Source of the DNA: a virus
Taxonomy: Duplodnaviria; Caudoviricetes
Strand: one strand, 5' to 3'
DNA: 64,000 bases
Virus record (IMG/VR): IMGVR_UViG_2615840722_000002
Span: 3,936-67,935 of that record
The stretch's first letter is position 1. The number at the start of each line of letters is the position of its first letter. The notes beneath the pieces were generated by a model. That model worked only from the letters and a program-made list of their open reading frames with translations. It made no database searches and was not told the origin of the DNA. The position numbers and the translations under genes were made by a program. Shown piece after piece: positions 4,966 through 62,966 of this stretch.

Positions 4966-7932
4966 TTATGGTTGGGTAACCTGTGGTGTATTCACATTAT
5001 CAAAAGCATCGGACAAGAGTAAGAGTATTTCTTGCAAAAACGAATCTTTGTCCATGTCGTTCTGAATAATAATATTTCCGTTGATAAGACTGTTGAGTTT
5101 CAATATACGGCTTCCACCACTTACCGATGGTTTAGTCGATGCCATCGAACGCAATGTTTCTGCCTGTTCCTCTGATAATTTTCCGGTAACTCCGCCATTT
5201 GCATACTGATTCACTCCGAGATACTTACCTGTTTGTGCAAACAGGCTGAGTGCTCGTCTGCGTTTATTACGACTGAGCGGTATAACCATTTCAATTCCTG
5301 CTTCTCCTGCAATTCCAGTACCCCCACCAACAAGTGTAGGTTTGTTAACGAGTCCAGCTACACCGCCATTTGCAAATTCTTGTTTTGGCATCTCCATCCC
5401 TGTATTTGGTGCAGGAACCGCATCAATTCGACTGGCAAGGTTATTCAGTGCTTGTTTCACACTATTAACTGAATCATCAATTCCACTAAAGTGAGAAGCG
5501 ATCCTTCCAGCCATTAGACCAGATATAAACGAAAGAGAGCCGAAGTTTGTAGTAACAAGACGAGCTTTATTTTCCATCTCGCCCAAAAACGAGATCACTC
5601 TCCCTGCTCCTATACCAGCCATAAATGCAAGAGAGTGGAAGTTCGTAGCTATAAGCTGGGCCTTGGGTTCAATCGGACTTATCGCTCCCGCGAGTTTTCC
5701 TGCCATCAGACCTGCAGTAACAGCAAGAGCATTAAGATTCTGTTGGGCAAGTTTTGTGTCAAGGCCTGGTGACTGCGTTTGTGTAGATGGCGGCTGTTCT
5801 TGCGGTTTTGGCGCCGGCTCTTCTTGACCAATGCGTTTCCAGATTGGTTCGCGAGTGTCTGTCCAATACTCGATTGTTCCATCAAGCGAGGCATTTTTGT
5901 ATTGTCCTTCTTTATGACCAAACACCCAATCTCCCGCCATTTCCCCAAATTCCGCCGCGCTTGTGAGTGTTAGATACGTACCAAGTGGACCGAGTATTTT
6001 GCCTCCCTTTTTGAAAAAACCTTTGCCTCCTTTTTGGGGTTCAGGCGCTGGTTTAGGTGCGGGAGCTGGTTTAGGTTGTGGTACCGGCTTAGGTTTAGGA
6101 CTTGGTTTAGAAGGCGTGGGCTTTGGCTGCATCGGCGTTGGTGTCGGTTTTGGCTTTGGTTTGATTTTCTCTTTTATTTTACCACCGATTTTATATGCAC
6201 CTTTTGCTAGTGTAATTCCACCTTTTAGCAAAAGTCCGCCCCCCAATAAATATGCAAGCATTCCAGTGCCACCTGCAGTAGAGAAGTTTCCTTGCATAAG
6301 ATTGTTCATGGATGTTTCCATTAGTCTTTGCAGAACAGTAATCCAAGCATTGAATCCGATTTCTGCCATCTTAATGAAAACTGCTTCGAGCTTCTTTCCG
6401 CCCGGTCCTTCCAACCATTTCCCCATAGCTTCTGTGATTTTATTCATCGCGTGGTCGACCTTCTCCTCGAAATTCATGTTGTAAAGGTCAATTTTATCCT
6501 GCATTTCTTTGCGAAACTCAGGATCGATACGCATTTCATCCAACGTAGCTTTATCAATCTTTGGCTTTGTGAATGGCTGGAACGCCTCGTCTAATACTTT
6601 TGCGATTCTTTGTCCCAACGCTTCTACTTTCGTCATCGATCCTTCTGTAAAATTGGTCATAGCATCTGTTAGTTTTTGGATGATAGGAAGTGCGGCTTCT
6701 AAACCTTTGATCTTCATAGCTTCAAAGGCCCCTCGTAACTGCTCCAGACTACCAGCTACATTATCCATCATCGTTTTAGCCATCTTTTCCGCTTCCCCAT
6801 CTGAATTCACCATGTCATTTTGCATCTTGCGGAATGCCTCAGGTCCTTTTTCGATGAGTGTAATCCACGCCGGGGCAGCTTCTACCCCAAACAAACCCTT
6901 TGCCATATCTAATTTTTCAGCTTGGCTCAATTTTTTGAACTTGTTGTGGAGTATGTCAATCATTTCTGCCATAGATTTGAACTTACCTTTACTGTCTACG
7001 GCCGAGAAGCCCAGTTTATCCATCGCTTCACCTGCGGCTTTTGGCGGCGCGGCTAGCCGTAATAAACCCATACGTAAGGCTGTACCAGCTGTATCCGCTT
7101 TGATATTGGCATTTCCCAAGATAGCGATGGCCGCGGCGACGGATTCAAGTGATTGCCCAGCGGTAGCGGCTACAGGTGCTACATATTTCATTGAGTATCC
7201 GAAGTCCGTCATACTGATAGTAGATGCCAAAGCCGCTTTCGCCATAACGTCGCCAATATGAGGTAGGTCTTTAATCTCCATCCGCATACCGGACATTGTT
7301 CCGATCATCAAGTCGGAAGTTTGGGCAAAATCTTCCCCTGCAGCTGCAGCAGAATTTAACACAGCAGGCAAAGCGCCCATCATTTGAGTAGAGTTCAATC
7401 CAGCTTGTCCCAAGACCACCATCCCTTGAGCAACTTCACTTGATGAATACACCATTTCCTGACCAAGCTGGATAGCTAATTCATTCATTTTTTTAAATTC
7501 CTCTTGCGTTGGTTGCGACAAAGCTTTCACTTTACTCATGGTTTTTTCAAAGTCTACAGCCGTCCTGAATGTATCGCCTACGATAGCACCGGCACCTAAG
7601 CCTGCCGTAATTCCGATAGCTGTAGGCAGGCTTGTAAGTCTTCCGTGGATTTTATCTATAGCTTGTGTTGCTTTATCTGTGACATTTATTGTCGTGTTGT
7701 ATGCGCTTCCCGCTATACGTTTTAAACCATCATTAATACGTTGTATTTTACTAGTGGCTTGGTCGTTTACGCCAATAGTCGGCTGTCCTCTTTTGCGTCC
7801 AAGTTCATCCATTGCTTTACCAGTGTTACCAGCTTTCTTTCCCATATCATCAAGCGATTTTGTGATATTCTTTGCTTTTGAACTCATACGGTCCACCAAA
7901 TCAAAGACGGCGGTTAACTTTCGTTCTGCCAT
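4966..7932 (-). CDS. tape measure protein (TP901-family core)
   Basis: FEKTMSKVKA, YSSSEVAQGM, YSMKYVAPVA, AGTALR, GKFKSM; ~990 aa; start MAERK. Confidence 0.92.
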   Translation of the reverse strand: MAERKLTAVFDLVDRMSSKAKNITKSLDDMGKKAGNTGKAMDELGRKRGQPTIGVNDQATSKIQRINDGLKRIAGSAYNTTINVTDKATQAIDKIHGRLTSLPTAIGITAGLGAGAIVGDTFRTAVDFEKTMSKVKALSQPTQEEFKKMNELAIQLGQEMVYSSSEVAQGMVVLGQAGLNSTQMMGALPAVLNSAAAAGEDFAQTSDLMIGTMSGMRMEIKDLPHIGDVMAKAALASTISMTDFGYSMKYVAPVAATAGQSLESVAAAIAILGNANIKADTAGTALRMGLLRLAAPPKAAGEAMDKLGFSAVDSKGKFKSMAEMIDILHNKFKKLSQAEKLDMAKGLFGVEAAPAWITLIEKGPEAFRKMQNDMVNSDGEAEKMAKTMMDNVAGSLEQLRGAFEAMKIKGLEAALPIIQKLTDAMTNFTEGSMTKVEALGQRIAKVLDEAFQPFTKPKIDKATLDEMRIDPEFRKEMQDKIDLYNMNFEEKVDHAMNKITEAMGKWLEGPGGKKLEAVFIKMAEIGFNAWITVLQRLMETSMNNLMQGNFSTAGGTGMLAYLLGGGLLLKGGITLAKGAYKIGGKIKEKIKPKPKPTPTPMQPKPTPSKPSPKPKPVPQPKPAPAPKPAPEPQKGGKGFFKKGGKILGPLGTYLTLTSAAEFGEMAGDWVFGHKEGQYKNASLDGTIEYWTDTREPIWKRIGQEEPAPKPQEQPPSTQTQSPGLDTKLAQQNLNALAVTAGLMAGKLAGAISPIEPKAQLIATNFHSLAFMAGIGAGRVISFLGEMENKARLVTTNFGSLSFISGLMAGRIASHFSGIDDSVNSVKQALNNLASRIDAVPAPNTGMEMPKQEFANGGVAGLVNKPTLVGGGTGIAGEAGIEMVIPLSRNKRRRALSLFAQTGKYLGVNQYANGGVTGKLSEEQAETLRSMASTKPSVSGGSRILKLNSLINGNIIIQNDMDKDSFLQEILLLLSDAFDNVNTPQVTQP

Positions 7933-8101
7933 AGTTTCACCTCCTTTCAAAAGAAAAAGCCGCTCGGTGTGAGCGACTTTTTCTTTTGAATCTTATCAAG
8001 TCGTTATAGTTATTACATCATTTATCAGTACGTTTATATTAATTTCCTCTCATTGTGTATATACCATATAGAAAAGTCTATTTGGCATAGGGGAATAAGT
8101 T

Positions 8102-8452
8102 TTATTGGATATCCTTTGCCCATTCAAGGGCGCTTAGATTAGCTCCTAATCCGCAAAGTAAGCCTATAATACCAAGCACTACTGAAGCCCCCAGATTTTC
8201 GATAAAAAAAGCTCCAATTACATATCCGATTACACCCCAGGCAATGCCAAAACAGATACATAAACCAAAGGCAAGGGGCTTAAACAAAAGAGCTATAATA
8301 CAACCTAAGAAAATTCCACCAAAAACCCACCAAGATGAACTCCATATACCTAAAAATATTGCCAAAAAAACAATTTCACCGAATAGTATATTGCTATTTT
8401 CTTGATTAAATTTGGCGTTAGTTATGCCTTTTCTAACATCTTCACTACTCAA
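8102..8452 (-). CDS. multi-pass membrane protein (moron)
   Basis: About four hydrophobic segments; GGAGG RBS; AT-rich; flanked by hairpins. Confidence 0.7.
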   Translation of the reverse strand: MSSEDVRKGITNAKFNQENSNILFGEIVFLAIFLGIWSSSWWVFGGIFLGCIIALLFKPLAFGLCICFGIAWGVIGYVIGAFFIENLGASVVLGIIGLLCGLGANLSALEWAKDIQ

Positions 8453-8628
8453 TTAAACCCCTCCTTTTTCCCTACATTCTACATCATCCTTCCTATATAA
8501 TTAAAGATTTTTCCAATATATCACTTTTTAAAATTACATAAAATTATCATCTAATTCCCATTTTTCGCCTTGTTTTATTTTCAACATTGATTTTCCAAAA
8601 GAAAAAGAGCAACGCTATTCGCTGCTCT

Positions 8629-8868
8629 TTATTGATTCGTTATGGCCCGTTTGATTAATTTTACGTCAGTGGCCAAATCATCTACTTGTTTTTGTACATC
8701 TGCAACTGGAGAGTGTATCTCACTATTTGCTGCTGTTTGCTCTCTAATGACTTCTAATTTGTGATTTAGTTCAGTAAATCGTTCGTCTACGCTATCGAAT
8801 CGTTGATTCATTTCTTTTTTCATATCCTGCATTTCGGCAAGGATTTGCTTGAGTATTTCCTCCATCAT
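8629..8868 (-). CDS. small coiled-coil hypothetical protein
   Basis: GGAGG RBS; heptad pattern; terminator-like hairpin at 8602-8630. Confidence 0.7.
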   Translation of the reverse strand: MMEEILKQILAEMQDMKKEMNQRFDSVDERFTELNHKLEVIREQTAANSEIHSPVADVQKQVDDLATDVKLIKRAITNQ

Positions 8869-8960
8869 TTATCCTCCCGGCATATATATGAATGTATTAT
8901 ATCATGGTTGTTGCTCTGTATTCCCTATGCATTTTAGGGAAACCGTAGTATGCAGGCTAC

Positions 8961-9101
8961 CTATTTTGATTTTATCAATTGTTTGATTTTCTTAAGCGTG
9001 ATTTTTGCTATTTCATCATCGGCTTGACTCCGCTTCACTAATCCCTTGAAAATTAAGAGATCACCAACAGTAACAACTGTATCAACTTCCTTAGTGTACA
9101 T
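8961..9101 (-). CDS. 46-aa hypothetical protein (not in the ORF track)
   Basis: Hand-translated MYTKEVDTVVTVGDLLIFKGLVKRSQADDEIAKITLKKIKQLIKSK; GGAG RBS; overlaps the upstream stop. Confidence 0.55.
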   Translation of the reverse strand: MYTKEVDTVVTVGDLLIFKGLVKRSQADDEIAKITLKKIKQLIKSK

Positions 9102-9426
9102 GGCAATCTCCAAATACAGTATCTAGGAACATTTTTCGATATCCGTTACATAAAGAATGTAGATAGTTCGCAAAGAAGTCGCATACCTCTCGTTCGTCAT
9201 AACCAAATGTAGGTAGTTGTTCCAGGCAAAAAGTTAGAAGTTTTGCCGGATTTTCTGGATCATCCTGTTCTCTCCAGCGAAAATTTACAGCGGTGAATTT
9301 TCCTGTCATACTTTCTAATGATTGAAACGGGTATATTTCTAGCGCATCAACTATTTCTCTTGCTACTTCTTCAATGCTTGGATAATCCATGATTATTCCT
9401 CCATATTGATTGGAGGCAATACCCAC
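9091..9426 (-). CDS. hypothetical protein
   Basis: Open ORF with two RBS-backed starts (GTG 9426 or MDYPS). Confidence 0.6.
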   Translation of the reverse strand: MGIASNQYGGIIMDYPSIEEVAREIVDALEIYPFQSLESMTGKFTAVNFRWREQDDPENPAKLLTFCLEQLPTFGYDEREVCDFFANYLHSLCNGYRKMFLDTVFGDCHVH

Positions 9427-9552
9427 TTTTATTTCCCTCTTTTTTTAGGTATACTGAGGGTAGTCGAATTCTTGTGGGGTATTGCCCCACTTTTTTTATT
9501 TGTGTTTTTTAGCTTGTCACTTTCTTAACTGCGAATTAAGAAGGTGATTTTT

Positions 9553-10065
9553 TTATGCGCCGATTCTTGGCCGCCATGCCTCAATCATTCTCAATGCTTC
9601 ATCCATGTCTAGCCGACGAATGTCCTGGTAGCTGGTGACTGCAAAAGTATCTTTTACATCGCGCCAAATTTTTGGATACAACTTACGCTTGGCTTGATCT
9701 ATGTCTGGCTTTACTTCTCCCATATCATCGAATAGCAGTTGTTGTATGTCCTCTCTATGGGCTAGTTCCCGCACCCGTCGTTCTACCGCCTTTTTAACTT
9801 TTACCGCCTCATGGTAATCCAAGCGTTCGTTTTTCTTGACGGTCTCTACATCTTGCTTAAATTCCGTCATTTTTTGTTCAAACTCAGACAGCTTTATTTC
9901 TGTCTTTTTCTCTGCTACTACCTGACTTTGTTTGAGTACTTCCAATTCTCTTGATACTACATCGATTTGGCGTTGCACTAACGCAGCTTGCAGCATATTA
10001 ATTTGAGAATCATTTAATGTGCTAATGTCTACGCTTGTCCCATTTAATTGCACTACGTTATTCAT
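9553..10065 (-). CDS. ORF6C-domain protein (antirepressor-type C-terminus)
   Basis: RKLYPKIWRDVKDTFAVTSYQDI...EALRMIEAWRP; paralogous to the C-terminus of 33219..33956. Confidence 0.8.
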   Translation of the reverse strand: MNNVVQLNGTSVDISTLNDSQINMLQAALVQRQIDVVSRELEVLKQSQVVAEKKTEIKLSEFEQKMTEFKQDVETVKKNERLDYHEAVKVKKAVERRVRELAHREDIQQLLFDDMGEVKPDIDQAKRKLYPKIWRDVKDTFAVTSYQDIRRLDMDEALRMIEAWRPRIGA

Positions 10066-11140
10066 AAGGTATAGCCTCCAATTCAATATAATTTCCATTT
10101 GGTAGCAAGGAACGGATTTCTTTACACCAGTCTTCTACATTAGCGACAATATCTTCAATGTTTTTTAAAGCGACTTGGCTATCAAGTCTTTCAAAAGCTC
10201 TGGAATACTTAACAGGAGCTAGCTTGGTCTGTAGAAAGTGTTCAATCTCCACGACAAGGCCGGAAAGTGCGGTAGCTGACTCAATTTGACGATGCAAGTT
10301 ATCTCGTTGGGAAGAAAGAAATCGCAATTGCTCTTTCATCCGCCGATACTCTTCCGCATCCCTTTCTTGCATTTTCATGTAATCTTCTACTTTTCTTTTT
10401 TGAGCTTCGATTTTCTGTATTTCCGCCTCTTTAGCTTTTAGTTGTTGTTCCAACTCCTGCAATTTTCTTTCCACACTCTGTGGAGTTACTTCTCTTTCAA
10501 TGATTTTTGGCGGTTTTGACTGTTCTTTCTTTAATTCTTTCTGAAGCATCGCGGCTTGTTTTTCCGCTTTTTCTTTTTCCTGTTCCGACTTCTGCAATTT
10601 TTGTTTTAACTCTGTATACGCTTTGTGAATGCTAATTTTATCTTCATCAAGTCTACGTATCGTTTCGTCGTCAGCATTTTCAGTTATAAATTTTGCCTTT
10701 TCGTACTGTTTACCGCTACCGAACCCTGCTTGGTCAGCTACGATATCACGCACTTGTCCTTTTTGACCCTCAGGAAAATTTTCCTGACCCCCTGTTTCCA
10801 TCCTTTCTTTTGCTTTTAATCTTTCTATTTCTTCTAAACGTCTTGCCCATTCAACACGCTCAGAAAAAGTGAATTCTTTTCGGTTCTCATTTTCACTAAT
10901 CTCCATGCGGAGTTGATGCTCATAATCTCGAATTGTCATAACCCGAACTTCTATTTGTTGGTATTCAAGATGTTTGCATGCTCGTAACCTTCGTTCCCCG
11001 GCGATTAGTGTATAGTTAGGAGTAACAACCGGGGGGTTAATCAATCCGTTTTCTTTAATATCCTGCGCTAGTTCCTCAATGTTGCCAAAGTCTTTGCGGA
11101 TACGGTCATTCACCTTTATCTTGTTAATGTCTAATAACAT
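10058..11140 (-). CDS. ParB N-terminal domain protein with coiled coil
   Basis: IEELAQDIKENGLINPPVV, LIAGERRLRA, EISENENRKEFT. Confidence 0.85.
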   Translation of the reverse strand: MLLDINKIKVNDRIRKDFGNIEELAQDIKENGLINPPVVTPNYTLIAGERRLRACKHLEYQQIEVRVMTIRDYEHQLRMEISENENRKEFTFSERVEWARRLEEIERLKAKERMETGGQENFPEGQKGQVRDIVADQAGFGSGKQYEKAKFITENADDETIRRLDEDKISIHKAYTELKQKLQKSEQEKEKAEKQAAMLQKELKKEQSKPPKIIEREVTPQSVERKLQELEQQLKAKEAEIQKIEAQKRKVEDYMKMQERDAEEYRRMKEQLRFLSSQRDNLHRQIESATALSGLVVEIEHFLQTKLAPVKYSRAFERLDSQVALKNIEDIVANVEDWCKEIRSLLPNGNYIELEAIPYE

Positions 11141-11594
11141 CTGAAAGCAGCCCTTTCCGCTCTAACTCAAGTAATTTTTCCATCATCATTTCTTCAACTT
11201 GCTGATTAGTTAGCCTCACCGTTCTGATGCCGAGTTCATGGTAGAAGAAATAGTCCCGTATTTTGTCTTTCAAAATTTTAATTTCTGTTTTGTGATTATC
11301 GCCGTCTATTTCATAAATAATGTTATTTTCTTCGTCGTAGAAATCAGCTGTAAAACGTTTGGATAAGTATTCCTCTAACCCTCCTTTACCTGTGCCGAAA
11401 TGAACTTGTTGTTTCATGTGAGGATATAGCATAGAAAACATGTTTTCGTGAGTAGTTCTTCTTTTATCCCCTTGTCCGCCCACAAAATTAGAACTTTGAG
11501 AAGAGAAGAAAATATCAAATACTTCTCCAAAGTCACTAGGACAATTAGGATTGCATTGGTTTTTAATCATCTGAAAGACTTCTGTAGCATTCAA
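11124..11594 (-). CDS. DUF559-like PD-(D/E)XK endonuclease-domain protein
   Basis: FTADFYD...IYEIDGDNH...KDKIRD...GIRTVRLTNQQV. Confidence 0.7.
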   Translation of the reverse strand: MNATEVFQMIKNQCNPNCPSDFGEVFDIFFSSQSSNFVGGQGDKRRTTHENMFSMLYPHMKQQVHFGTGKGGLEEYLSKRFTADFYDEENNIIYEIDGDNHKTEIKILKDKIRDYFFYHELGIRTVRLTNQQVEEMMMEKLLELERKGLLSDVIRH

Positions 11595-11804
11595 TTAACT
11601 CACATCCTCTCGATACTCTAGAAGTTCGCCAATGGTACAGCCGAAATACTGGCATAGTTTGTCCAATGTATCGAACTGAACCCCCTTTCCTTTTCCATAA
11701 TACAAGCTAAAAAGTGTTGTTCGAGAAATTCCTGTTTCCTCTGATAGATGTTTTACTTTCAACAATCGTTCTGCCATTAATACCGGCAAGTTGGACTTAA
11801 TCAT
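11595..11804 (-). CDS. Cro/C1-type HTH regulator (HTH_26)
   Basis: LSEETGISRTTL...KGVQFDTLDKLCQYFGCTIGELL. Confidence 0.88.
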   Translation of the reverse strand: MIKSNLPVLMAERLLKVKHLSEETGISRTTLFSLYYGKGKGVQFDTLDKLCQYFGCTIGELLEYREDVS

Positions 11805-11844
11805 ATCTACACCTCCACCTCCTTTTTTGTATCGTATATACTTC

Positions 11845-11958
11845 TAAAAGTATCGTACTCGATACCTTTAGTTGATTAAAATTTACACTTTAAGGAACTT
11901 GTTGTCAATACCAAAAGTTTAATTTGTTGCTATAAAAGTATTTAGTATGATACTTTTA
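11845..11958. promoter_or_regulatory. two 26-bp palindromic operators between divergent HTH genes
   Basis: TAAAAGTATCGTACTCGATACCTTTA (11845-11870) and TAAAAGTATTTAGTATGATACTTTTA (11933-11958). Confidence 0.7.
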
Positions 11959-11978
11959 TGGTGAAAGGGTGAACTTGA

Positions 11979-12494
11979 ATGATAAAATGTAACCTTGCTG
12001 TACTACTAGTAGAACGTAATCTTAAAATGGCTGATGTAGTTCGGGATACTGGAATAGCTAAAACAACAATTCGAGCTCTTTATTACAACACAAGTAAAGG
12101 CGTTCAATTCGATACATTAAATACGCTATGCACTTATCTAAACGTGACACCTGGAGAATTAATGCTATATCATCCGTCTGAATACCAATTAATTGATGTT
12201 GATATGGCAAATATTGAAGACACCTTTGAGGCAGAATTCCTTTGGATATCCAAAGGAAAAAGAACAATCTACAATGTAAAAGCAGAAGTAAACGTAAATG
12301 GACGTGATGAAGAAGACGAAATAACTGATTTAAGAATAGAAATTATCTATCCTAGAAATTTGTATGATGAATTATTTGACCTTCCTCATATATTTTCAAA
12401 TGACATAGATAATGAAATTGTTAATAGCGTCTTAGAATACTATGTTTTAGCGGACAATCCCTCTATAAGCATATACATTGACAAATATGAATAA
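11979..12494 (+). CDS. HTH_26 repressor with C-terminal extension
   Basis: N-terminus paralogous to 11595..11804 (KGVQFDTL..LC); divergent. Confidence 0.85.
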   Translation: MIKCNLAVLLVERNLKMADVVRDTGIAKTTIRALYYNTSKGVQFDTLNTLCTYLNVTPGELMLYHPSEYQLIDVDMANIEDTFEAEFLWISKGKRTIYNVKAEVNVNGRDEEDEITDLRIEIIYPRNLYDELFDLPHIFSNDIDNEIVNSVLEYYVLADNPSISIYIDKYE

Positions 12495-12540
12495 GCTTTT
12501 TATTTATGGCTCAGACGATCCAAGTGTATATATGCCCACT

Positions 12541-12575
12541 AAAAAAGACGCCTTAGATTAAGGGCGTCTTTTATT
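12541..12575. terminator. bidirectional intrinsic terminator
   Basis: AAAAAAGACGCC-loop-GGCGTCTTTT between convergent genes. Confidence 0.8.
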
Positions 12576-12603
12576 GCTGAGTTAATTTTCCGTTAAATAT
12601 TTC

Positions 12604-12849
12604 TCATGATTTGGTTACTTCTTCAATAAGACGGTTAAGATTTTCGCTTACCTCTGAAGGAAAGTATGGGTGATCCCTATCTATAGATACTGCGTCACTT
12701 AAAGAACGGGTTTTACCTGTTTTACGCTCAAAGACGGTTCCTTTAACCTCCCGACCTTCTTTCCATACAGTGACTTTATGATTGCCGTCGCTACTTGTCC
12801 AGCTTTTTTCACCATATCTTCTCAAAAGAAATCTCCCCCTTTTCCTCAC
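12604..12849 (-). CDS. small hypothetical protein
   Basis: AGGGGGAG RBS suggests a TTG start near 12825. Confidence 0.55.
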   Translation of the reverse strand: MRKRGRFLLRRYGEKSWTSSDGNHKVTVWKEGREVKGTVFERKTGKTRSLSDAVSIDRDHPYFPSEVSENLNRLIEEVTKS

Positions 12850-13009
12850 ATTTTACCTTAATTCCTCAGAAAGGGGGCAGTTTTCCAAAATAAAAAGCAC
12901 TCGCATCCAAGCGTGCCTTAATATGGTATAATTTTGTCATTGCACAATTTGATACGGCTCCTCAAGGGTGGTCTACGGCTCACTCCCTGTAAGAAAGGGG
13001 GTGGAGTTT

Positions 13010-13093
13010 ATGACAGTATTCGAATCATTAATGTTGATGATTGCATTCGCAACACTAATTGTAGCTATACTGTCGTTTAACCAAAAGAAATAG
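13010..13093 (+). CDS. type I toxin, BsrG/BsrE/BsrH-like holin-like peptide (27 aa)
   Basis: MTVFESLMLMIAFATLIVAILSFNQKK; AAAGGGGGTG RBS; TGgTATAAT at 12924-12932; terminator 13184-13220. Confidence 0.88.
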   Translation: MTVFESLMLMIAFATLIVAILSFNQKK

Positions 13094-13243
13094 GCCCCCT
13101 TGAGTTTGGACGACCAGGGAACCTATTTCTATGACCTGTAATTAGTCTGAGCCGTCCCCCTAGAGGGAACGTTTATTGTGCATGACCGTTTGGTGTTACC
13201 AGCACCGAGCGGTCTTTTTTAGTATATTCATTGAGTAATGCTT
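13083..13243 (-). ncRNA. antisense antitoxin RNA (SR4/SR5/RatA-like layout)
   Basis: Minus-strand promoter TTGCAG(13278-73)-17bp-TATAAT(13255-50) with extended TG; terminator GAAATAGG...CCTATTTCTTTT overlapping the toxin stop. Confidence 0.75.
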
Positions 13244-13319
13244 GCATTCATTATATCAATGCTGAGATGTAGCTGCAAGCTACTATCCACGTGCTACCTT
13301 AGGTCAATACCAACTACCG

Positions 13320-13481
13320 CTACACTTTATCTCTCTCTAGTTGGTATAGAATACTCCCATATATAAACGCCTTTTCATGTGCATCTGGATTATTCCAAAT
13401 CACACGTGGCCTCATCTTCAAGCGATGCAAGGCATAGTGAGCAACTACCGCATCACGATAGCCGCCCTCAATTAGTTTTTT
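13320..13481 (-). CDS. -1 frameshift extension of the tail assembly chaperone (gpGT-like)
   Basis: Slippery A_AAA_AAC before the stop; -1 frame reads KLIEGGYRDAVVAHYALHRLKMRPRVIWNNPDAHEKAFIYGSILYQLERDKV*. Confidence 0.75.
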   Translation of the reverse strand, partial: KKLIEGGYRDAVVAHYALHRLKMRPRVIWNNPDAHEKAFIYGSILYQLERDKV

Positions 13482-13900
13482 GCATCTTCCACCAATTCTT
13501 CAAAGTCTTTTGTATAACCATTTACTTCGGTTGCAGCGGAAATCCAGTTCGCATATTCCCCTGGGATAGATAGAATCCGTTTGGCAAGGTCAATCGGATC
13601 TTGTTCCCCATAAGATGCTAACAACTCCGGATTTGTAAAGTCAGGAAACTTTGTAGATTTAACCGCGATTTCAGCATTAGCTCGGACTGCATCGTACTTT
13701 TCGTTACCTTCCCTGTCTGTACGTGTATGCTTTGCTCTGATTTCCTCTACATATGACTGCGGGATGGCTTTCATCACGAACGGAATTGGATTTCCTTTTT
13801 CATCAACATAGCGGTCGGAGATGTTCTGAAATTTACGCTCCTGCACAGGTTTTGCGTTCCCTTTCATAAATGCCTGCATCAATTTGTTCATATCACTCAT
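13472..13900 (-). CDS. xkdN: tail assembly chaperone (XkdN-like)
   Basis: SDRYVDEKGNPIPF, FPDF.NPELLASYG, ILSIPGEY, ends EDAKN; start MSDMN after GGAGG. Confidence 0.88.
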   Translation of the reverse strand: MSDMNKLMQAFMKGNAKPVQERKFQNISDRYVDEKGNPIPFVMKAIPQSYVEEIRAKHTRTDREGNEKYDAVRANAEIAVKSTKFPDFTNPELLASYGEQDPIDLAKRILSIPGEYANWISAATEVNGYTKDFEELVEDAKN

Positions 13901-13961
13901 TTGTATTCCTCCTTGTTTTTTGCATGAGAATAAAAAGAGAGTGGCATGCAGCCACCCTATA

Positions 13962-14414
13962 TTAGTCAAAGTCGTATCGTAACTTTTCCTGGACATCATA
14001 GTCAGAGTAGGAAAACGGAATTTCATTTTTTACGATATCGCCTTCTGAATCGAACATCATCAATTCCAATTCATCAATACTGCATTCTTTCACGACAATG
14101 CGCTCTGTACCTCGCTTGGCCGATACATCATCAAGTACACCCATCAACGTGAAATACACTTCTTCCCCGGTGTCTTTGTATTTTGTCATCATATCCAACC
14201 AGCGCGGGGTTGCCTTGTACTCTGTGATAGAACCTTTTGGCTGCTCAAGCCCGATGGTACGTTCTCCAATAATTCGCTTGCCCAAAATAGGTGCTTCCAC
14301 TTTCTTTTTCTTGATGCTAATGCTGAATTTAATACTGTTGACTAATTCTTCTCCGTCCAAGTATAGACGGCCTTCACGGGCCGAAATGGTATTCCGCTCA
14401 GAATAACGGGGCAT
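13962..14414 (-). CDS. xkdM: tail tube protein (XkdM-like)
   Basis: ISAREGRLYLDG...EIPFSYSDYD; follows the sheath gene. Confidence 0.88.
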   Translation of the reverse strand: MPRYSERNTISAREGRLYLDGEELVNSIKFSISIKKKKVEAPILGKRIIGERTIGLEQPKGSITEYKATPRWLDMMTKYKDTGEEVYFTLMGVLDDVSAKRGTERIVVKECSIDELELMMFDSEGDIVKNEIPFSYSDYDVQEKLRYDFD

Positions 14415-27849: not shown

Positions 27850-28176
27850 TTACTCAACGATCATCCAATCTTCTGCTAAAACGTCACTCGTACTTGGCGT
27901 CCACATAGCATGGGTACCGTCTGCACATCTTAATTGCAGATAAGGTCTGCATTTGAACAAATCCCCTTCGTTCATTCCCCATGTCTTTGCTGTTTGTGCA
28001 TTGCAAGGTATTCCGTCTGGGTATCCTTTTTGATATGCCGCAAACATTCCTTTACCATTCCATCCAGCACGAGTTACCTTGTACCCTTCTTTCATAAGGT
28101 CAACAGCTAACCCGATACCGAACTGCGCTTTAGTTTCGATCATTTGTTCTACAGTTACACCATTAAGATTTTCCAT
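27850..28176 (-). CDS. DUF2829 / Tad2-like protein
   Basis: KEGYKVTRAGWNGKGMF...PYLQLR..DG...WTPSTSDVLAEDW. Confidence 0.85.
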   Translation of the reverse strand: MENLNGVTVEQMIETKAQFGIGLAVDLMKEGYKVTRAGWNGKGMFAAYQKGYPDGIPCNAQTAKTWGMNEGDLFKCRPYLQLRCADGTHAMWTPSTSDVLAEDWMIVE

Positions 28177-28653
28177 TGTTTTCACCTGCCTTTCTTGTTT
28201 ATGCGTCTGCATCCCGCCTGCATTTATCAACGCATTTTCCCTCCCAATAAAAAAACACTGTTTTACGGGGACAGTAGCCGAACCCTTTGTAGGCGACAAA
28301 CTATAAGTAAATCGCAAAATAAAAAGCCGCCTGTTGGCGACGATTATTACTTCCTTATTTGTTCATAGTCGTTCAGCATATTTTTGAGACTCCGCTCTAC
28401 TTCCTCTAATGATGCGTACTCACGATTGGTTTCTATATGCCACAGGATATTTTTAATCCCATTCATTACAGATGTTAAGTAGTCCATATAAAGAACCGCC
28501 TTAAAAGCTAACTATATCCGCGTATTTATCCGCTAACCAATCAAAAAGCGACCTATCATATTGAATGGGTACGCAATACAACGCAACAAGATATACGGGA
28601 TTAAGAGGAGAAGTACCAGGACTCCAATTCCTTCAAAGGGATTGAACATGTCA

Positions 28654-46509: not shown

Positions 46510-47997
46510 TCAGCGAGTGGCAGCTACTTCAAGTTGAGTTTGATCTATCATGACGCTTTGTCTGTATTCTTGCGCTTCAGCTAATTTGGTGAATTCGACG
46601 ACTTTATTATGATTCTTTTTTACGATATCCTCTATTTCTTTTAAAGTCACATAGAAAAACTCTTTTCGATGGTTAACCTTATTGACGCTTTTCCTGCGGA
46701 AAGATTTATGTAGTGCATTTTCTAAACTTGGTGCATCTTCGCTAAAAATCATTGCATGTATATCAAAACCGAAAGGGACAGAAGCTCCGCTTAACTCCCT
46801 TATTCGTTCCGTTGGTTCTAACCTTCTGGTCATTCCGATTTTGTAGACATTCTCTCCAAATGAACCGATATTTGAAATAATATAAACATAACCGGCTCGT
46901 GTGTTTTGTTCCCGATTATATACATCCTCTTTGTCTTTTTCGATAAGTACAAGTTTTTCTTCTAGCTCTCTTATTTTTGTTTCTATTAATTCTTTCATAC
47001 TGCCTGTTGCTGTCTCTAATTTTTTCTTTAGTTTATCTATCTCTTGTTTAAAGTGAGTTTCCTCTTTCTCTAATTTCTCTTTAATTTTATTAATCTCTTG
47101 AAGAACACGTTGTTCCTCACGCATCTGCTCTTTTATGCGTCGTTGTTCTTCTCGTTCCTCTTCTTTTTTCTTTTCATACTCATATGCTAAATATAGCTCT
47201 TCTTTTTTTAACTTAAAGTATTCCTGTTTAATTTCAATCTTATTATGCTTATTTACTTTATTTAATGCGTCAAAGGCTTTCTCGATACGCTTTTCAATAG
47301 ATTGGATATTATTGAACTTAACTTTACTAATCGCCGCATCACATTCGTTGTTAAAGGAGCGAATCGTCAATTTTATGTTATTATTATTCATGGCTTTTCC
47401 TTTTTGTTTATTGCCGTCGAGTCGCCAATCATCCGAATGAATAGTAGCCTTGCGATTTTTGACCATTTCCTTTTGTTTGTTCCTGACTGATTCAAGCCTT
47501 TGTTTATACGCTTCGGAATTTTCTAAGTTATATTTTGGTGTATAAAAACCAAATGATTGATAAAGAACTTCATCCTCTAGGACAACTATTTCATTATGTA
47601 ATTCCTTCTTCTTTTGCTCAGCATTATGTACTTCCTTCGTTAACTCACTTATCTCATTCTTTAAATCCACTACCTCTTTCTTTGCATTATCAACTATTCC
47701 CTGCGCCACTTTCCGCAAATCATCTCCCTCTGTTTTAGCGCTTTCAATTATGCCTTTTGCTTCTTTTTCCGCATTACCAATTAGTTCCTGTACCTCTTTT
47801 TGTATTTTGTCTCTCCTTTCTTGTATTCTAACTAAATCACCAAAGCCGCTATCTTCCCACTCTTTTCTTACTATTTGATTTTCTTTATTTTGCCGAATCA
47901 AAAGGATAATACCGATAACTAGTGGAACAACTAAAAACCAAAACATAAACATCAATGCAATAAACCAGCTTGATAAATACCATTTTTGCTCTCTCAT
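46510..47997 (-). CDS. membrane-anchored DUF4041 + T5orf172 (GIY-YIG-like) protein
   Basis: N-terminal TM; RSFNNECD; RAGYVYIISNIGSFGENVYKIGMTRRLEP..RELSGASVPF. Confidence 0.9.
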   Translation of the reverse strand: MREQKWYLSSWFIALMFMFWFLVVPLVIGIILLIRQNKENQIVRKEWEDSGFGDLVRIQERRDKIQKEVQELIGNAEKEAKGIIESAKTEGDDLRKVAQGIVDNAKKEVVDLKNEISELTKEVHNAEQKKKELHNEIVVLEDEVLYQSFGFYTPKYNLENSEAYKQRLESVRNKQKEMVKNRKATIHSDDWRLDGNKQKGKAMNNNNIKLTIRSFNNECDAAISKVKFNNIQSIEKRIEKAFDALNKVNKHNKIEIKQEYFKLKKEELYLAYEYEKKKEEEREEQRRIKEQMREEQRVLQEINKIKEKLEKEETHFKQEIDKLKKKLETATGSMKELIETKIRELEEKLVLIEKDKEDVYNREQNTRAGYVYIISNIGSFGENVYKIGMTRRLEPTERIRELSGASVPFGFDIHAMIFSEDAPSLENALHKSFRRKSVNKVNHRKEFFYVTLKEIEDIVKKNHNKVVEFTKLAEAQEYRQSVMIDQTQLEVAATR

Positions 47998-51353: not shown

Positions 51354-52031
51354 ATGAAAAAGATACTTGCACTCATGATCATGCTAGGACTGGTAGCAGC
51401 TCCGCTGTCCGCTTCTGCTCATCCCGGCCGCACCGACGCAAATGGAGGACACACATGCCGGACAAACTGTGCTAAATGGGGATTAAAAGACGGGGAATAT
51501 CACTACCATAACGGAGGCAGCACAAAAACAACGTCTGCCCCTACTACAAAAGCAACGCAACCAGCTCCCGCAAAGGCGACTACAACTAAACCAGCTCAAA
51601 ACAAGCTTCCTGGTACCTTGAAAGTAACAGTTACGAAGGTCGTTGACGGGGATACATTCAAAGCGAAGGTCAATGGCAAGGAAGAAAGCCTTCGTTTGAT
51701 TGGTGTTGATACGCCAGAAACGGTCCATCCAAACAAACCTGTACAACCATACGGCCCAGAAGCTTCCGCTTACACCAAGAAGCGCCTCAATGGACAAACA
51801 GTAACTTTAGAGTTTGACGTTCAACAGAGGGACAAATACGGGCGTCTATTGGCGTATGTATGGTTAGGCAACGCTAAGAATCCGAAAGCTGAAATGTTGA
51901 ATCAGACACTTGTCAAAGAAGGCTATGCCCAGGTTGCAACGTTCCCGCCGAACGTTAAATATACAGATAGCTTTGTAAAACTGCAGAAGCAGGCTCGGGA
52001 TGCTAAGAAAGGTCTATGGGCTGAAAAATAA
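51354..52031 (+). CDS. secreted YHYH-domain thermonuclease (SNase)
   Basis: Signal peptide; HPGRTDANGGH..EYHYH; VVDGDT, RLIGVDTPE, DKYGRLLAY. Confidence 0.92.
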   Translation: MKKILALMIMLGLVAAPLSASAHPGRTDANGGHTCRTNCAKWGLKDGEYHYHNGGSTKTTSAPTTKATQPAPAKATTTKPAQNKLPGTLKVTVTKVVDGDTFKAKVNGKEESLRLIGVDTPETVHPNKPVQPYGPEASAYTKKRLNGQTVTLEFDVQQRDKYGRLLAYVWLGNAKNPKAEMLNQTLVKEGYAQVATFPPNVKYTDSFVKLQKQARDAKKGLWAEK

Positions 52032-52140: not shown

Positions 52141-52674
52141 TTATTTTGGCCACTTATCGTCAACTATCTCGATGCCAGCCCTTTGTATATAGTTGTCATA
52201 GTCATATGTGGAGCCTGACCCATTAATTAATTTAAAGAGTTCATATTTCTTTTTTGGTATTGAATATCTTGTAACCTCATATGTCTTATCATCAATCTCC
52301 CTATCTGGTAAAGGAATAGAGACTCGTCCGCCATCTACCGTCACATAAATATCCCTGTATACTAATGTCCCATTATAAAAGAAATCTATAAAACTACTTG
52401 TCGCCTTTGGATCAGGGAATTTATTTGCCCATTCCTCCATAAAATTATCTCTATGTTCCATTCCCCATGCTAGACTGATTGATAAATCTGTTTTTAATGA
52501 TGCTACTGTACTATGAGAATCGATGTCTAGGCTATGAAATTCATCATCCCCTGTTTTCCAGACCGTAATATTGTTGTAATATGACGGACCACTTCCTCCT
52601 CCCCAACAAACGTTAATTGTCCAATCTTCCTTTTGAGCAGTTAACACTTTGTCCATAAATTCAGTTAAATTCAT
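52141..52674 (-). CDS. hypothetical protein
   Basis: GAGGGG RBS; standalone and AT-rich. Confidence 0.7.
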   Translation of the reverse strand: MNLTEFMDKVLTAQKEDWTINVCWGGGSGPSYYNNITVWKTGDDEFHSLDIDSHSTVASLKTDLSISLAWGMEHRDNFMEEWANKFPDPKATSSFIDFFYNGTLVYRDIYVTVDGGRVSIPLPDREIDDKTYEVTRYSIPKKKYELFKLINGSGSTYDYDNYIQRAGIEIVDDKWPK

Positions 52675-52813: not shown

Positions 52814-53108
52814 TTTTATATGTTTTATATGTTTTATATGTTTTCGGAAGCTTGAACCCCTTGATATTACTAGGTTTATAGAGTCTAACTATCACATAAA
52901 CAGGGTCAACTATCACAAATTCAGGGCGAACTATCACATAAACAGGGTCAACTATCACAAATTCAGGGTCTTAATTATCACAAATTCAGGGCGAACTATC
53001 ACATAAACAGGGTCAACTATCACAAATTCAGGGTGAATTATCACATAAACAGGGCGAACTATCGCAAAAACAGGGTCAACTATCACAAGTTTAAAATTTG
53101 TGATAGTT
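52814..53108. repeat. plasmid origin: AT-rich 9-mers plus 21-bp iterons
   Basis: TTTTATATG x3; AACTATCACA(T/A)A(AA/TT)CAGGG(TC/CG) x9 at 52887-53077; half-iteron with inverted copy at 53078-53108. Confidence 0.93.
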
Positions 53109-53162
53109 CGTCGATAATATATAGTATAATAGAGCAAAAAGATGGCGAAGATGAGGTGTGGC

Positions 53163-54272
53163 ATGAACGCTTTGGAGAAAATAGATGAGAAATTGATCGT
53201 CACCAAATCAAACGATCTGATTGAAGCATCATACCGATTAACCCTTCACGAACAACGCATCATCTGTATACTGGCTGCCAAAATACAGCCAGAAGATACT
53301 GTGTTCCGGACATGCAGAATTGAGGTAGGCGAATTTATCGACCTACTTGGTCTTAAAGGCAAAAGCATACATAACGATATTAAAAAAATCATAAAGGATT
53401 TCGTCTACAAGGGATTCGAGATTAAAAGCGAAGGCGTATATACGGTGAGTTCCTGGTTTGAGTGGGCCAAATATAAAGAGAAGGAAGGGTTCATGGAATT
53501 TAAGTTTTCGGAAGAGCTTATCCCCTTCTTACTGCAGCTCAAGGAACGTTTCACCAGCTACCGGCTAAACAACGTTATACCGCTACGCAGTAGCTACTCT
53601 ATTCGTATCTATGAACTGCTAAAACAATATGCGAATATCGGAGAACGCACCTTTGACTTGGAACATTTGAAGTCTATTCTCGGTATTGAACCAGATGAGT
53701 ACAAGCTATACGGGCATTTCAAGAGCCGAGTTCTTACTTCCGCTCAGAAGGAACTTGATGAAAAGACAGACTTATCTTTTGAGTTTGAAGAATTGAAAGC
53801 CTCTAGAAAAGTTGTTGGGGTCCGCTTTATCATTACCCGAGGAAGGTCAACAAAAGAGATTAACCACATAGAGCCTAAAATCGTTGAGGAAATAGCCATT
53901 GCTTCTCGTTTAAAAGCGTTCGGATTGACTCAAGCACAAATCGAGTACATCCTGAAGACTTATGATGAATCATACATACTGGAAAACCTACATATTGTCG
54001 AGAAAGACTATTTAGCCGGAAGAGTAAAGAATATAACTGGTTATGCTTATAAAGCTTTAGAGCAAGACTACCGGAAGAATAAACCGGAGATAGAAAAGCA
54101 ATTGGAAGGTCAGAAAAGCAATCCTGCTTATGAAGGGATTCCTGAACATATTTTAAGGCAAATGGAGAGACAGAAAGCATTAGAAGCTCAGAGTGGTTCA
54201 GGAAAAGAACCGTCTCGCGAAGAACAGCGTAAACGTGTAAAACAAATGCTCCTTGCGTTCGGAGAAAAGTAG
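53163..54272 (+). CDS. repB: plasmid replication initiator, Rep_3/RepB family
   Basis: KSNDLIEASYRLT..EQRI, FLLQLKERFT.Y, SSYSIRIYELLKQ, FKSRVL..A..EL; adjacent iterons. Confidence 0.93.
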   Translation: MNALEKIDEKLIVTKSNDLIEASYRLTLHEQRIICILAAKIQPEDTVFRTCRIEVGEFIDLLGLKGKSIHNDIKKIIKDFVYKGFEIKSEGVYTVSSWFEWAKYKEKEGFMEFKFSEELIPFLLQLKERFTSYRLNNVIPLRSSYSIRIYELLKQYANIGERTFDLEHLKSILGIEPDEYKLYGHFKSRVLTSAQKELDEKTDLSFEFEELKASRKVVGVRFIITRGRSTKEINHIEPKIVEEIAIASRLKAFGLTQAQIEYILKTYDESYILENLHIVEKDYLAGRVKNITGYAYKALEQDYRKNKPEIEKQLEGQKSNPAYEGIPEHILRQMERQKALEAQSGSGKEPSREEQRKRVKQMLLAFGEK

Positions 54273-54332: not shown

Positions 54333-54740
54333 TTATATAGGTGTTCCTGAAATAAATCCAATAGCCCGAGCTATAGCAATCCCAGCGGCCGAATCACGAA
54401 GCGTATTTGAAAAAAGTGTATACAATGTTTTTGCTCGATCAAGGTTTCCGTTTTTTACAGCTTCTTGAAGTTTTTGAGCGTCTCCTAATGCCTCGTTTCG
54501 TTCAGCTTCATTTGGCAATTTATGTATCTCTTGAATGAAATCCGCAAAAATATCGGGTGATATTCCGGTCTGATTTTTTTCAATTTTTACTTGTGTATTT
54601 TCATTCCCTTGAAAGTTAGTATTATCACCAAGCTGCGCATTTTTAAAAGCGTTACCTGCAAAGATTTGTTTGCCGTCCATTATTGTCATCTCCCCGTTTA
54701 CAACGTAGTAGAGTTTATCAATATTCACTCCAGATTTCAT
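54333..54740 (-). CDS. hypothetical protein: N/G/Q-rich N-terminus, helical C-terminus (cassette gene 3)
   Basis: Best RBS (GGGGAG) precedes MDGKQ at 54680; also in the -1 frame of gene 2. Confidence 0.7.
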   Translation of the reverse strand: MKSGVNIDKLYYVVNGEMTIMDGKQIFAGNAFKNAQLGDNTNFQGNENTQVKIEKNQTGISPDIFADFIQEIHKLPNEAERNEALGDAQKLQEAVKNGNLDRAKTLYTLFSNTLRDSAAGIAIARAIGFISGTPI

Positions 54741-54781
54741 TATATCGAGTACAGATGTTGGTTTTGCATTAACTGTATTAC

Positions 54782-55147
54782 TTACATTATTAGTTGGACT
54801 GATTTCTTTTTTTTTACATGTTTTAAATACCCCGGAAGAAAATTAAATACAATCCAAACTTTATCTAGGCTAGGAATGTATTTGATATCGCATATACTAC
54901 ATGTTCTTATTTCCTCTGTGATTTCTGATAAAGAGTCAACATCATAATCACTATCTCCGTTAGGGCATTCTACTTCGTAATATACTGTTAATTTCTTGCC
55001 TACTAAGTCCAACATATACTCGGTTACAGATTTCAAATCAGTAACACCAAGCCTAGCGCATACATAGTGAGGCGCAAAGTGGGAACGACCTTCAACAGCC
55101 ATTTGTTCCAATATATCTTCTATAAGGAAATATAGATCCTCATCCAC
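54782..55147 (-). CDS. wHTH/Zn-ribbon-like protein (cassette gene 2)
   Basis: YEVECPNG...CSIC; GAGGGGAGG RBS; ends at the A9G run. Confidence 0.75.
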   Translation of the reverse strand: MDEDLYFLIEDILEQMAVEGRSHFAPHYVCARLGVTDLKSVTEYMLDLVGKKLTVYYEVECPNGDSDYDVDSLSEITEEIRTCSICDIKYIPSLDKVWIVFNFLPGYLKHVKKKKSVQLIM

Positions 55148-62093: not shown

Positions 62094-62966
62094 TTATCTT
62101 TTTTCATTAAGTAATTCATACCAATTTTCTGGAAAACCAATAAGATGCAATTTTATCTGGTCTTCATACTGACTAACCAGTGCATATAAGTTAGAAATGA
62201 AAAAGTCCCAAACGCTTTTATCCAGACATAATCTGCTCATTATATATATAGCTGCAAATGGGCTTTTTTCTTGTATACCTCGTTTTTTATCATCATCAAA
62301 TAATTTTGGTGAAAGAACTAATCGTTTCCCGTACAGTCGTCCGTAGTGAGCACATACATTCCTTACATACGCCAGCGTTCTAAGCCAGCTTTCTATATAG
62401 AACGGGGTGGTCCCGTAAGTTTCACCTGCAATTTTCTTTTGATCATCTTTCTTCATGTTCTTAAATAACATGGATAGTGCACCAAAGGTTATAAGTTCAA
62501 CCACTGCCCATATCGGAAATTGACCATCATACTTTTGTTGATAATGCTGAACAAAGAGTTCTTTTCCCCTCGAAGTTTCTTTTTTAACTTCCAATAAAAA
62601 ATTAGCATGATGTAATTCGCTTTTGAAATATTCTTTATTTTTATATCCTAAAGGACCATATTTATGAGCTAATACATAGGCAATTTCAGTTCGAAAAGCG
62701 ATTTCTATATTTTCTAACATTGGAAGCAATATATTTCGTAGTTTCTGATCGAACTGATACAAGGTATATACATGTTCAAAGGTTATTCCATCAAAAAATC
62801 TGTCGTTTTTTTCTAATGACAATGTGTATCCGCGAAGTCTGTAGTAATTCACTCTTTTTAGAATTTCCAACGCAAAGTACTCATTTTTTATTATTAAATT
62901 TCTATTTTTCAACAAATTTAATTGCTCTTCATGTGTAAGTGCAGGTTTCATTTGGTTTTCCTCCAT
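62094..62966 (-). CDS. abiF: AbiD/AbiF (Abi_2) HEPN RNase
   Basis: VNYYRLRGY, LYQFDQKLR, PIWAVVELITFG, VRNVCAHYGRL (RxxxxH). Confidence 0.93.
   Translation of the reverse strand: MEENQMKPALTHEEQLNLLKNRNLIIKNEYFALEILKRVNYYRLRGYTLSLEKNDRFFDGITFEHVYTLYQFDQKLRNILLPMLENIEIAFRTEIAYVLAHKYGPLGYKNKEYFKSELHHANFLLEVKKETSRGKELFVQHYQQKYDGQFPIWAVVELITFGALSMLFKNMKKDDQKKIAGETYGTTPFYIESWLRTLAYVRNVCAHYGRLYGKRLVLSPKLFDDDKKRGIQEKSPFAAIYIMSRLCLDKSVWDFFISNLYALVSQYEDQIKLHLIGFPENWYELLNEKR

Follow-up and report, generated by a model that had tools for sequence, protein, structure and literature searches.

A conserved run of nine adenines at the junction of two viral genes points to programmed slippage with three products

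The 64,000-nucleotide stretch of caudoviral DNA analyzed here (IMG/VR record IMGVR_UViG_2615840722_000002, positions 3,936 to 67,935; called the window below, with positions counted from its first letter) carries on its minus strand two genes, gene 2 and gene 3, that meet at a run of nine adenines (A9). Comparison with their relatives indicates that the two are very probably one gene recoded by slippage, whether of the RNA polymerase or of the ribosome. The reading that we prefer, to which we give a probability of roughly 0.62, is programmed slippage that takes place mainly at transcription (A9 to A10) and results in products of 121, 271, and 115 amino acids.

Standard decoding of gene 2 would yield a 121-residue protein made of the N domain. 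In a share of the transcripts, RNA polymerase would add one A at the run, and these A10 transcripts would be translated normally through a 42-codon linker into the C domain, which would give a 271-residue fusion (residues 1-114, ending in ...HVKKK, followed by EISPT...). A -1 slip of the ribosome on the heptamer A_AAA_AAG would produce the identical 271-residue protein and may contribute to its synthesis. Finally, a conserved internal Shine-Dalgarno sequence followed by the ATG at 54680 would allow the 115-residue C domain to be made alone.

On the minus strand, the junction reads CAT GTA AAA AAA AAG AAA TCA GTC CAA CTA ATA ATG TAA (coordinates in Table 1). Gene 2 ends in ...HVKKKKSVQLIM*, with its stop 7 codons past the A9 run, while the -1 frame goes on from KKK through EISPTNNVSNTVNAKPTSVLDI (22 codons) to MKSG... 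at ATG 54740 and is stop-free from 9 codons 5' of the run as far as 54333-54335, where gene 3 stops. The zero and -1 frames are jointly open only from 9 codons before the run to 7 after it, that is, over ~17 codons. Runs of at least nine A or T number 73 in the 6.35-Mb genome, and a single one, the A9 of the junction, is found on the contig in question (64,472 bases); that the sole run of this length falls inside a two-frame stretch of ~17 codons is more than would be expected by chance. On inspection of the sequence, no purine-rich Shine-Dalgarno element was seen ahead of ATG 54740, and GGGGAG precedes the downstream ATG that opens MDGKQ. An earlier annotation made by a model from the letters of the window (the first-pass annotation) had described this anatomy, namely an A9G site, a zero-frame end in KKKKSVQLIM, an open -1 stretch of 22 codons leading into gene 3, and two candidate starts, of which only the second, at 54680, has a ribosome-binding site; sequence and translation bear it out on each of these points.

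Relatives were collected at the protein and at the DNA level. A search of 1.84 billion representative proteins with gene 3 gave 48 proteins or clusters at E <= 0.001, 43 of which are 76-180 residues long. Three of the others, P0002 (292 residues), P0015 (287 residues), and P0022 (264 residues), have an N domain of the gene 2 type fused in frame to the C domain; the remaining two are P0038, whose N terminus is of another kind, and P0032, a repetitive artefact. Two relatives known as protein sequences only, P0008 and P0016, start 5' of a KKK(K) stretch, as expected for a -1-frame open reading frame (ORF) that reaches back through a run of this kind. So that junctions would be sampled without bias, loci were retrieved with gene 1, the gene directly upstream of gene 2, as the anchor, and then with a gene 2 profile. 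After copies from the same contig or with 100% identity had been collapsed, 14 distinct DNA lineages with the gene 2 domain remained, the window being one of them.

In ten of the 14 lineages the gene is split at an A run, behind which the C domain is encoded at -1. The run is A9 in nine of these, in the phasing xxA AAA AAA AAG in seven (the window, L003, L005, L009, L012, L018, and L019) and xxC/T AAA AAA AAA in two (L010 and L011), and it is A10 in L028. Two further lineages are split with the downstream ORF in the +1 frame: L013, identical to L014, has A11 and a downstream ORF that runs for 58 codons without a start codon, and L007 has A8 followed by a different, Mrr-like domain. The last two are in-frame fusions: L001 (Aneurinibacillus pAT1, the source of P0002) retains A9 in frame 0, so that slippage there would give the short form, and L027 has no run and carries an Mrr-like domain homologous to that of L007 (E 4e-6). 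The first-pass annotation had counted plain fusions, or homologs without an open -1 linker, as the outcome that would speak against it; ten of the 14 lineages instead keep split, run, and linker. A rule by which A10 would invariably mark the in-frame state was considered and discarded, since the C domain of L028 still lies at -1 behind its A10 run.

The manner in which the length of nine is kept is telling. In the ten -1 lineages, the first and second Lys codons of the run are AAA without exception (20/20), and the third Lys codon tracks the last base of the preceding codon: where that base is A, the third codon is AAG (7/7 A9 lineages), and where it is C or T, the third codon is AAA (2/2). 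The codons that flank the run differ freely while its length stays at nine. As judged from these codon choices, the length of the run is itself under selection, by way of compensating codon changes and whatever the codon phase. The gene 2 products of nine lineages align well up to KKK, and the zero-frame tails that follow are unalike, with 7-17 residues in the nine A9 lineages and 35 in L013. In L011, the -1 frame carries a TAA that overlaps the beginning of the run, and the zero frame closes 9 codons past the run, so that a shift could take place only within it.

A second line of evidence comes from the linker that leads from the run to the internal start. Stops are absent from the -1 frame over 403 linker codons in nine lineages, whereas the two remaining frames contain 44 and 48 (0 versus 6 and 6 for the window), and for each lineage a shuffled linker would remain stop-free with a probability of 0.009-0.062. 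The linkers share a motif, [ST]-[LV]-x-[DE]-[LI]-x-x-x-G-[IVL]-x-I, with the fused proteins and with many database relatives; in the window, this motif spans ATG 54740. L005 and L018 keep it although they have no ATG, GTG, or TTG between the run and the internal start, so that in these lineages the motif would be readable only by ribosomes arriving from gene 2.

The internal start is conserved as well. In ten lineages compared (L028 and L013 were left out), a GGAGG-like sequence lies 6-9 nucleotides 5' of an ATG, TTG, or GTG at the MDGKQ position in every case, including the fused L001. These GGAGG-like sequences encode the conserved residues G-G-[ED]; the start is ATG in three lineages, TTG wherever the residue is Leu (3/3), and GTG wherever it is Val (4/4). 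Gene callers chose the same position as the start of P0003 (115 residues, on 8 contigs), as they did for P0011, P0013, and P0024. The three products put forward in the first-pass annotation thus gain comparative support from the in-frame fusions (L001/P0002, P0015, and P0022), from a linker open in the -1 frame only, and from the Shine-Dalgarno-like sequence and start found in 10/10 lineages examined.

Sequencing data bear on the length of the run in the window. Five sequencing runs from two studies contain the stretch, with no RNA run listed for it, and four of the five were compared in the form of Logan contigs rather than raw reads. A contig of run X5 (641 bases, depth 692) covers 54348-54988, the A9 included, with 0 differences and 0 gaps. 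The contig of X4 ends at 54802, at the same place as the end of an adapter-containing piece, and X1 and X2 contributed nothing; the adapter ends, of the Nextera type, point to Illumina data. The first-pass annotation had named A10, and with it an assembly error, as a possible finding, but X5, the sole run that spans the site, has A9. Elsewhere, A9 is identical across three assemblies of one element and two of another, and A11 is identical in two assemblies.

Whether the shift would occur at transcription or at translation is the main matter to be weighed. Runs of nine A or T slip efficiently in vivo, according to the relevant sections of two reports (Baranov et al., 2005, PMC1088944; Atkins et al., 2016, PMC5009743), which also describe the use of a run of nine by the dnaX gene of Thermus thermophilus and an RNA-DNA hybrid of 9-10 base pairs in its RNA polymerase. 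With E. coli reporter cassettes carrying the runs of three magnesium chelatase genes, A11, A9, and A7 are reported to give 63, 40, and 10% frameshift product, respectively (Antonov et al., 2013, PMC3711429). These published rates make a substantial fraction of fusion protein plausible for the present A9. The same three products might also arise by dnaX-type -1 programmed frameshifting on A_AAA_AAG, the length of the run being incidental, an explanation that appears unlikely but not negligible. It draws on the presence of the heptamer in phase in seven of the ten -1 lineages, with A_AAA_AAA in the other three, and on the tRNA-Lys complement of the host, which is limited to the anticodon UUU (5 genes, no CUU), a condition described as making A_AAA_AAG highly shift-prone in E. 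coli (Atkins et al., 2016, PMC5009743).

The elements that would be expected to stimulate a ribosomal shift were not found at the junction. When the 70 nucleotides after the run were folded at 11 loci, none gave a stable structure (z scores from -1.15 to +1.22), and the value for the window, -2.9 kcal/mol, is weaker than that of its shuffles. No structure was detected 5' of the run at nine loci (z scores from -1.26 to +1.44), and the lineage sequences, read by eye, share no GGAGG-like element in the variable twelve codons 5' of the run. Moreover, seven bases would suffice for the ribosome, yet nine are kept through two codon phasings, and the +1 frame of the A11 lineage, which is reached by one A fewer or by two more, is beyond a -1 slip. 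Mainly transcriptional slippage is favored because of these features taken together: the nine bases rather than seven, the two phasings, the A11 lineage, and the lack of flanking RNA structure. Of the options offered in the first-pass annotation, recoding itself is retained, transcriptional slippage has gained on the same grounds, and the dnaX-type ribosomal route is now the less favored one.

Several points weigh against the preferred reading. An in-phase A_AAA_AAG or A_AAA_AAA is present in all ten -1 lineages and the host has tRNA-Lys(UUU) only, so that sequence alone cannot separate a ribosomal -1 shift from slippage of the polymerase. The evidence from reads consists of contigs, which lose minority variants. 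The lineages are related by descent, so that their counts cannot be treated as independent. The C domain owns a start, and an intact C ORF is by itself no proof of fusion; only the linker is. In L009, a metagenome contig, the gene 1 homolog (1557-2507) has an in-frame stop of the TAA type (ANQS*NEVFK) where its relatives have Gln, a sign of possible decay or misassembly of the module there, although A9 and the open -1 linker are intact. Lastly, the occurrence of slippage, its level, the 'set ratio' of products that the first-pass annotation had attached to it, and its mainly transcriptional nature are all things that we infer.

Two explanations that dispense with recoding fare less well. Replication slippage might toggle the run at the DNA level between A9 (off, split) and A10 (on, fused) in subpopulations, given that homopolymer runs are reported to be slippery for DNA polymerase too (PMC1088944, PMC3711429) and that lengths of 8, 9, 10, and 11 occur among the relatives. 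Such phase variation is nevertheless improbable: at the consensus level the fused state is found in none of the ten -1 lineages, the length is equal within each of three groups of copies that are 100% identical but stem from different assemblies, as well as between the window and X5 (all of them contigs, blind to minority variants), and compensating substitutions that keep nine bases would be needless for an on/off tract. An old, fixed frameshift, after which gene 2, a linker-plus-C protein, and the C domain would be translated independently with no fusion, has a similarly low standing. In its favor, the 43 short relatives of gene 3 in the databases were called as stand-alone proteins, and an ATG, GTG, or TTG occurs inside the linker in seven of nine lineages. 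It is countered by the 15-50 codons from the run to the first start, which are stop-free at -1 in nine of nine lineages, by the motif kept in L005 and L018, and by ATG 54740 with no Shine-Dalgarno element; it also leaves the conserved run length unexplained. That the true run is A10 and the gene a plain fusion, the split being a sequencing or assembly error, has next to no probability, for although homopolymers are error-prone in some chemistries and the contig of one run only crosses the site, A9 and the split are also found in eight other lineages (isolate genomes, viral contigs, and metagenomes), identically in independent assemblies, and X5 backs A9 at high depth in Illumina-type data. On this comparative evidence, the split is neither an assembly error nor a one-off mutation.

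Among described systems, the closest parallels to mainly transcriptional slippage at the junction are T. thermophilus dnaX, which encodes tau and gamma, and other A9/T9 realignment sites. As these are portrayed in the pertinent parts of the literature (Baranov et al., 2005, PMC1088944; Antonov et al., 2013, PMC3711429; Atkins et al., 2016, PMC5009743), they share with the gene 2/3 junction a sense-strand A9 within a coding region, two products with a common N terminus, no need for a stimulatory structure, and a run conserved in homologs. In T. thermophilus dnaX as described there, the templated frame leads to the long product and slippage to the short one, whereas the ten -1 lineages have the reverse arrangement and L001 alone has the dnaX polarity. 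The dnaX protein family is unrelated to that of gene 2/3, for which slippage is proposed from comparison. The dnaX gene of E. coli has the same A_AAA_AAG in the same phase, in a host with a single tRNA-Lys(UUU), but it has an upstream Shine-Dalgarno-like element and a downstream stem-loop as stimulators, neither of which was found at the gene 2/3 junction, where the run exceeds the heptamer and the conserved trait is its length.

Insertion sequences of the IS3 family, of which IS911 is a type, encode OrfA, an OrfB that overlaps it at -1, and an OrfAB fusion, with an A-rich slippery site at the overlap. The gene 2/3 layout is alike in its small, DNA-binding-like N-terminal ORF, its -1 overlap at an A-rich site, and its three putative products, i.e., N part, fusion, and C part from an internal start. 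In Pfam and NCBIfam searches, however, no transposase or DDE domain was found in gene 3, P0001, P0022, or P0015; the C part is a 115-residue helical bundle, and the module sits beside a conserved gene of 335 codons in phage or plasmid DNA, with no known IS features at its sides (inverted repeats were not searched for in the flanks). Gene 2/3 would be a new case of a known class of poly-A recoding, with the three-product layout seen in IS3. A last likeness is to TubY, a third component of the type III (TubZRC) partition systems, portrayed as having an N-terminal domain of the DNA-binding type, a lysine cluster, and a C-terminal helical domain of the oligomer type (Hayashi, 2020, PMC7762940), features to which the 271-residue fusion and its place next to tubRZ in the window are comparable. 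With no MerR-like match, no sequence match to solved structures, and linkage to tubRZ in the window only, this is a resemblance and not homology.

The product of gene 1 matches no Pfam, NCBIfam, or PADLOC family. Its AlphaFold2 (AF2) model has a predicted local distance difference test score (pLDDT) of 78.9, and Foldseek relates it to CENP-N (E 4.5e-4) and RdgC (E 1.1e-3), the matches of these two kinds spanning E 4.5e-4 to 1.8e-3 at template modeling (TM) scores of 0.3-0.4. In the Atlas, an RdgC cluster reached a TM score of 0.52, and one cluster with GAPS4b_N on 11% of its members is a lead only. A fold like that of RdgC or CENP-N is thus predicted for gene 1. For the fused protein P0022, the AF2 model (pLDDT 84.2, predicted TM score 0.46) has residues 1-117 at pLDDT >90, a low-confidence region at 118-190, and a four-helix bundle at 193-263, again at pLDDT >90; the N domain is predicted to have a winged-helix-like fold and a Cys-rich ribbon. 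Foldseek gave nothing for P0022 at E <= 0.001, the best rows for its N domain being of the MarR, ArsR, and TFE-alpha types, all at E > 0.1. Searches of Pfam, NCBIfam, and PADLOC with the proteins of the module returned sub-threshold rows only, with no family or defense-system model, and a sequence search of the PDB returned designed helical repeats only.

In the window, gene 1, gene 2, and gene 3 come after tubZ, and the first-pass annotation had spoken of gene 2 and gene 3 as cassette genes. Membership in a TubZ cassette was not borne out: tblastn searches with TubZ and TubR at E <= 1e-5 gave no hit to the homologous loci of other lineages (upstream flanks of 1.4-4 kb), and no MerR match was obtained. 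In Brevibacillus fulvus, an amidase-like ORF is found upstream of the module. The lack of TubZ and TubR matches at other loci and the different neighbor in B. fulvus argue that gene 1 and gene 2/3 form a module of their own, which appears to travel in phages and phage-plasmids of Bacilli. A search of genome contigs with a profile of 10 sequences matched B. fulvus alone, and a class-wide scan of 401 genomes found four with the N domain, including the window itself and the B. fulvus copy again. Near-identical DNA was not found in plasmids or in 60 related genomes, tblastn with gene 1 gave no match in phages and plasmids, and the DNA of the nearest relative, P0004 (81% identity), was not found in metagenome contigs. 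A word-indexed search for longer, fused forms with P0001 and the gene 2 profile also gave none, which is weak evidence; P0022 (264 residues) lies outside both length bands. A literature search returned general papers on recoding and nothing on this gene family; the 146 candidate clusters in the supplement to PMC3711429 might include it.

What follows the junction varies among the lineages. In L007 (5383-6081, at +1 behind A8) and L027 (96-1190 on the minus strand, in frame, 365 residues), the N domain is paired with a weakly Mrr-like nuclease domain, and on the strength of these pairs the C-terminal module is, in the lineages compared, exchanged around the same junction. L013 (5328-5819), identical in two metagenome assemblies, has a third type of C module behind A11 at +1, of 164 residues and no family, which shares with gene 3 only the linker motif (ISLADIQQLLGHGNINI).

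The exchange of C modules is typical of anti-phage defense effectors, and slippage by RNA polymerase varies with nucleotide supply and elongation rate. A rather unlikely extension of the slippage scheme would have the A run act as a tunable dial on a phage-borne sensor-effector module, in which recoding would be the trigger that arms the effector and not a fixed-ratio device. The winged-helix/zinc-ribbon N domain would be joined through a run of A8 to A11, and in a shifted frame, to exchangeable C modules, namely a helical bundle with a hydrophobic tail, the Mrr-like nuclease (L007, and in frame L027), or the third type (L013). If so, the share of fusion protein could rise when infection or stress disturbs transcription.

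The element in the window looks like a phage-plasmid, as a phage morphogenesis block, a Rep3 initiator, and tubRZ lie on one 64-kb contig (Table 1). Between the XkdN-type tail chaperone gene (13472-14026) and the tape measure gene (4966-7950), the interval 8102-13472 holds non-tail genes. Accessory genes at 27850-28317, 46510-47997, 62094-62966, and 51354-52031 encode, respectively, a Tad2-like (anti-Thoeris) protein, a DUF4041 + T5orf172 protein, an Abi_2 abortive-infection-like protein, and a secreted-type SNase nuclease. Beside the origin, a minus-strand ORF of 177 codons (52141-52674) has a weak match to the PADLOC model PDC-S50, a candidate defense model (E 1.1e-4).

Table 1. Features of the gene 2/3 junction, its neighbor, and the rest of the element, in coordinates of the window.
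Feature	Position	Strand	Remarks
Gene 1, 335 amino acids	55182..56189	minus	directly 5' of a gene 2-type ORF in every locus with a homolog (67-37% identity)
Gene 2, zero-frame product, 121 amino acids	54782..55147	minus	start GTG 55147, with GAGGGGAGGG ahead of it; stop 54784-54782
A9 run, candidate slippage site	54807..54815	minus	G at 54806; A_AAA_AAG at 54812-54806 in zero-frame phase
Linker, 42 codons, EISPTNN...VVNGEMTI	54681..54806	minus	coding in the -1 frame only
GGGGAG, Shine-Dalgarno-like	54690..54695	minus	9 nucleotides 5' of ATG 54680 (MDGKQ start)
C-domain ORF, 115 amino acids, MDGKQ...GTPI	54333..54680	minus	internal start; doubles as C-terminal part of the putative 271-residue fusion
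Rep3-type initiator	53142-54272	plus	
Iteron-type origin, 9.5 tandem copies of a 21-bp unit (AACTATCACAAAAACAGGGTC)	52887-53088		just 5' of the Rep3 gene
Contractile-tail morphogenesis block	280-25171	minus	small and large terminase, portal, Mu F-like protein, XkdF protease, capsid, sheath, tube, XkdN-type tail chaperone, tape measure, baseplate J
ORF6C-domain protein	9553-10098		non-tail insert
ParB_N-domain protein	10058-11140		non-tail insert
HTH_26 protein	11979-12494		non-tail insert

For annotation, the finding means that gene callers split gene 2/3 and overlook the fusion, and that the database entries are 'hypothetical proteins' of 115-180 residues. To our knowledge, few examples of recoding outside insertion sequences have been described in Bacilli. 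The family offers a clean comparative case of selection on the length of a homopolymer through compensating codons, an indication that the polymerase slips rather than the ribosome. It would also combine both polarities, the default product being the short one in ten lineages and the long one in a single lineage. With the conserved internal start added, slippage would amount to a three-product design known mainly from insertion sequences. The analysis also marks out an uncharacterized two-gene module, a protein predicted to be RdgC/CENP-N-like and a probably recoded partner, in varied contexts in phages and phage-plasmids.
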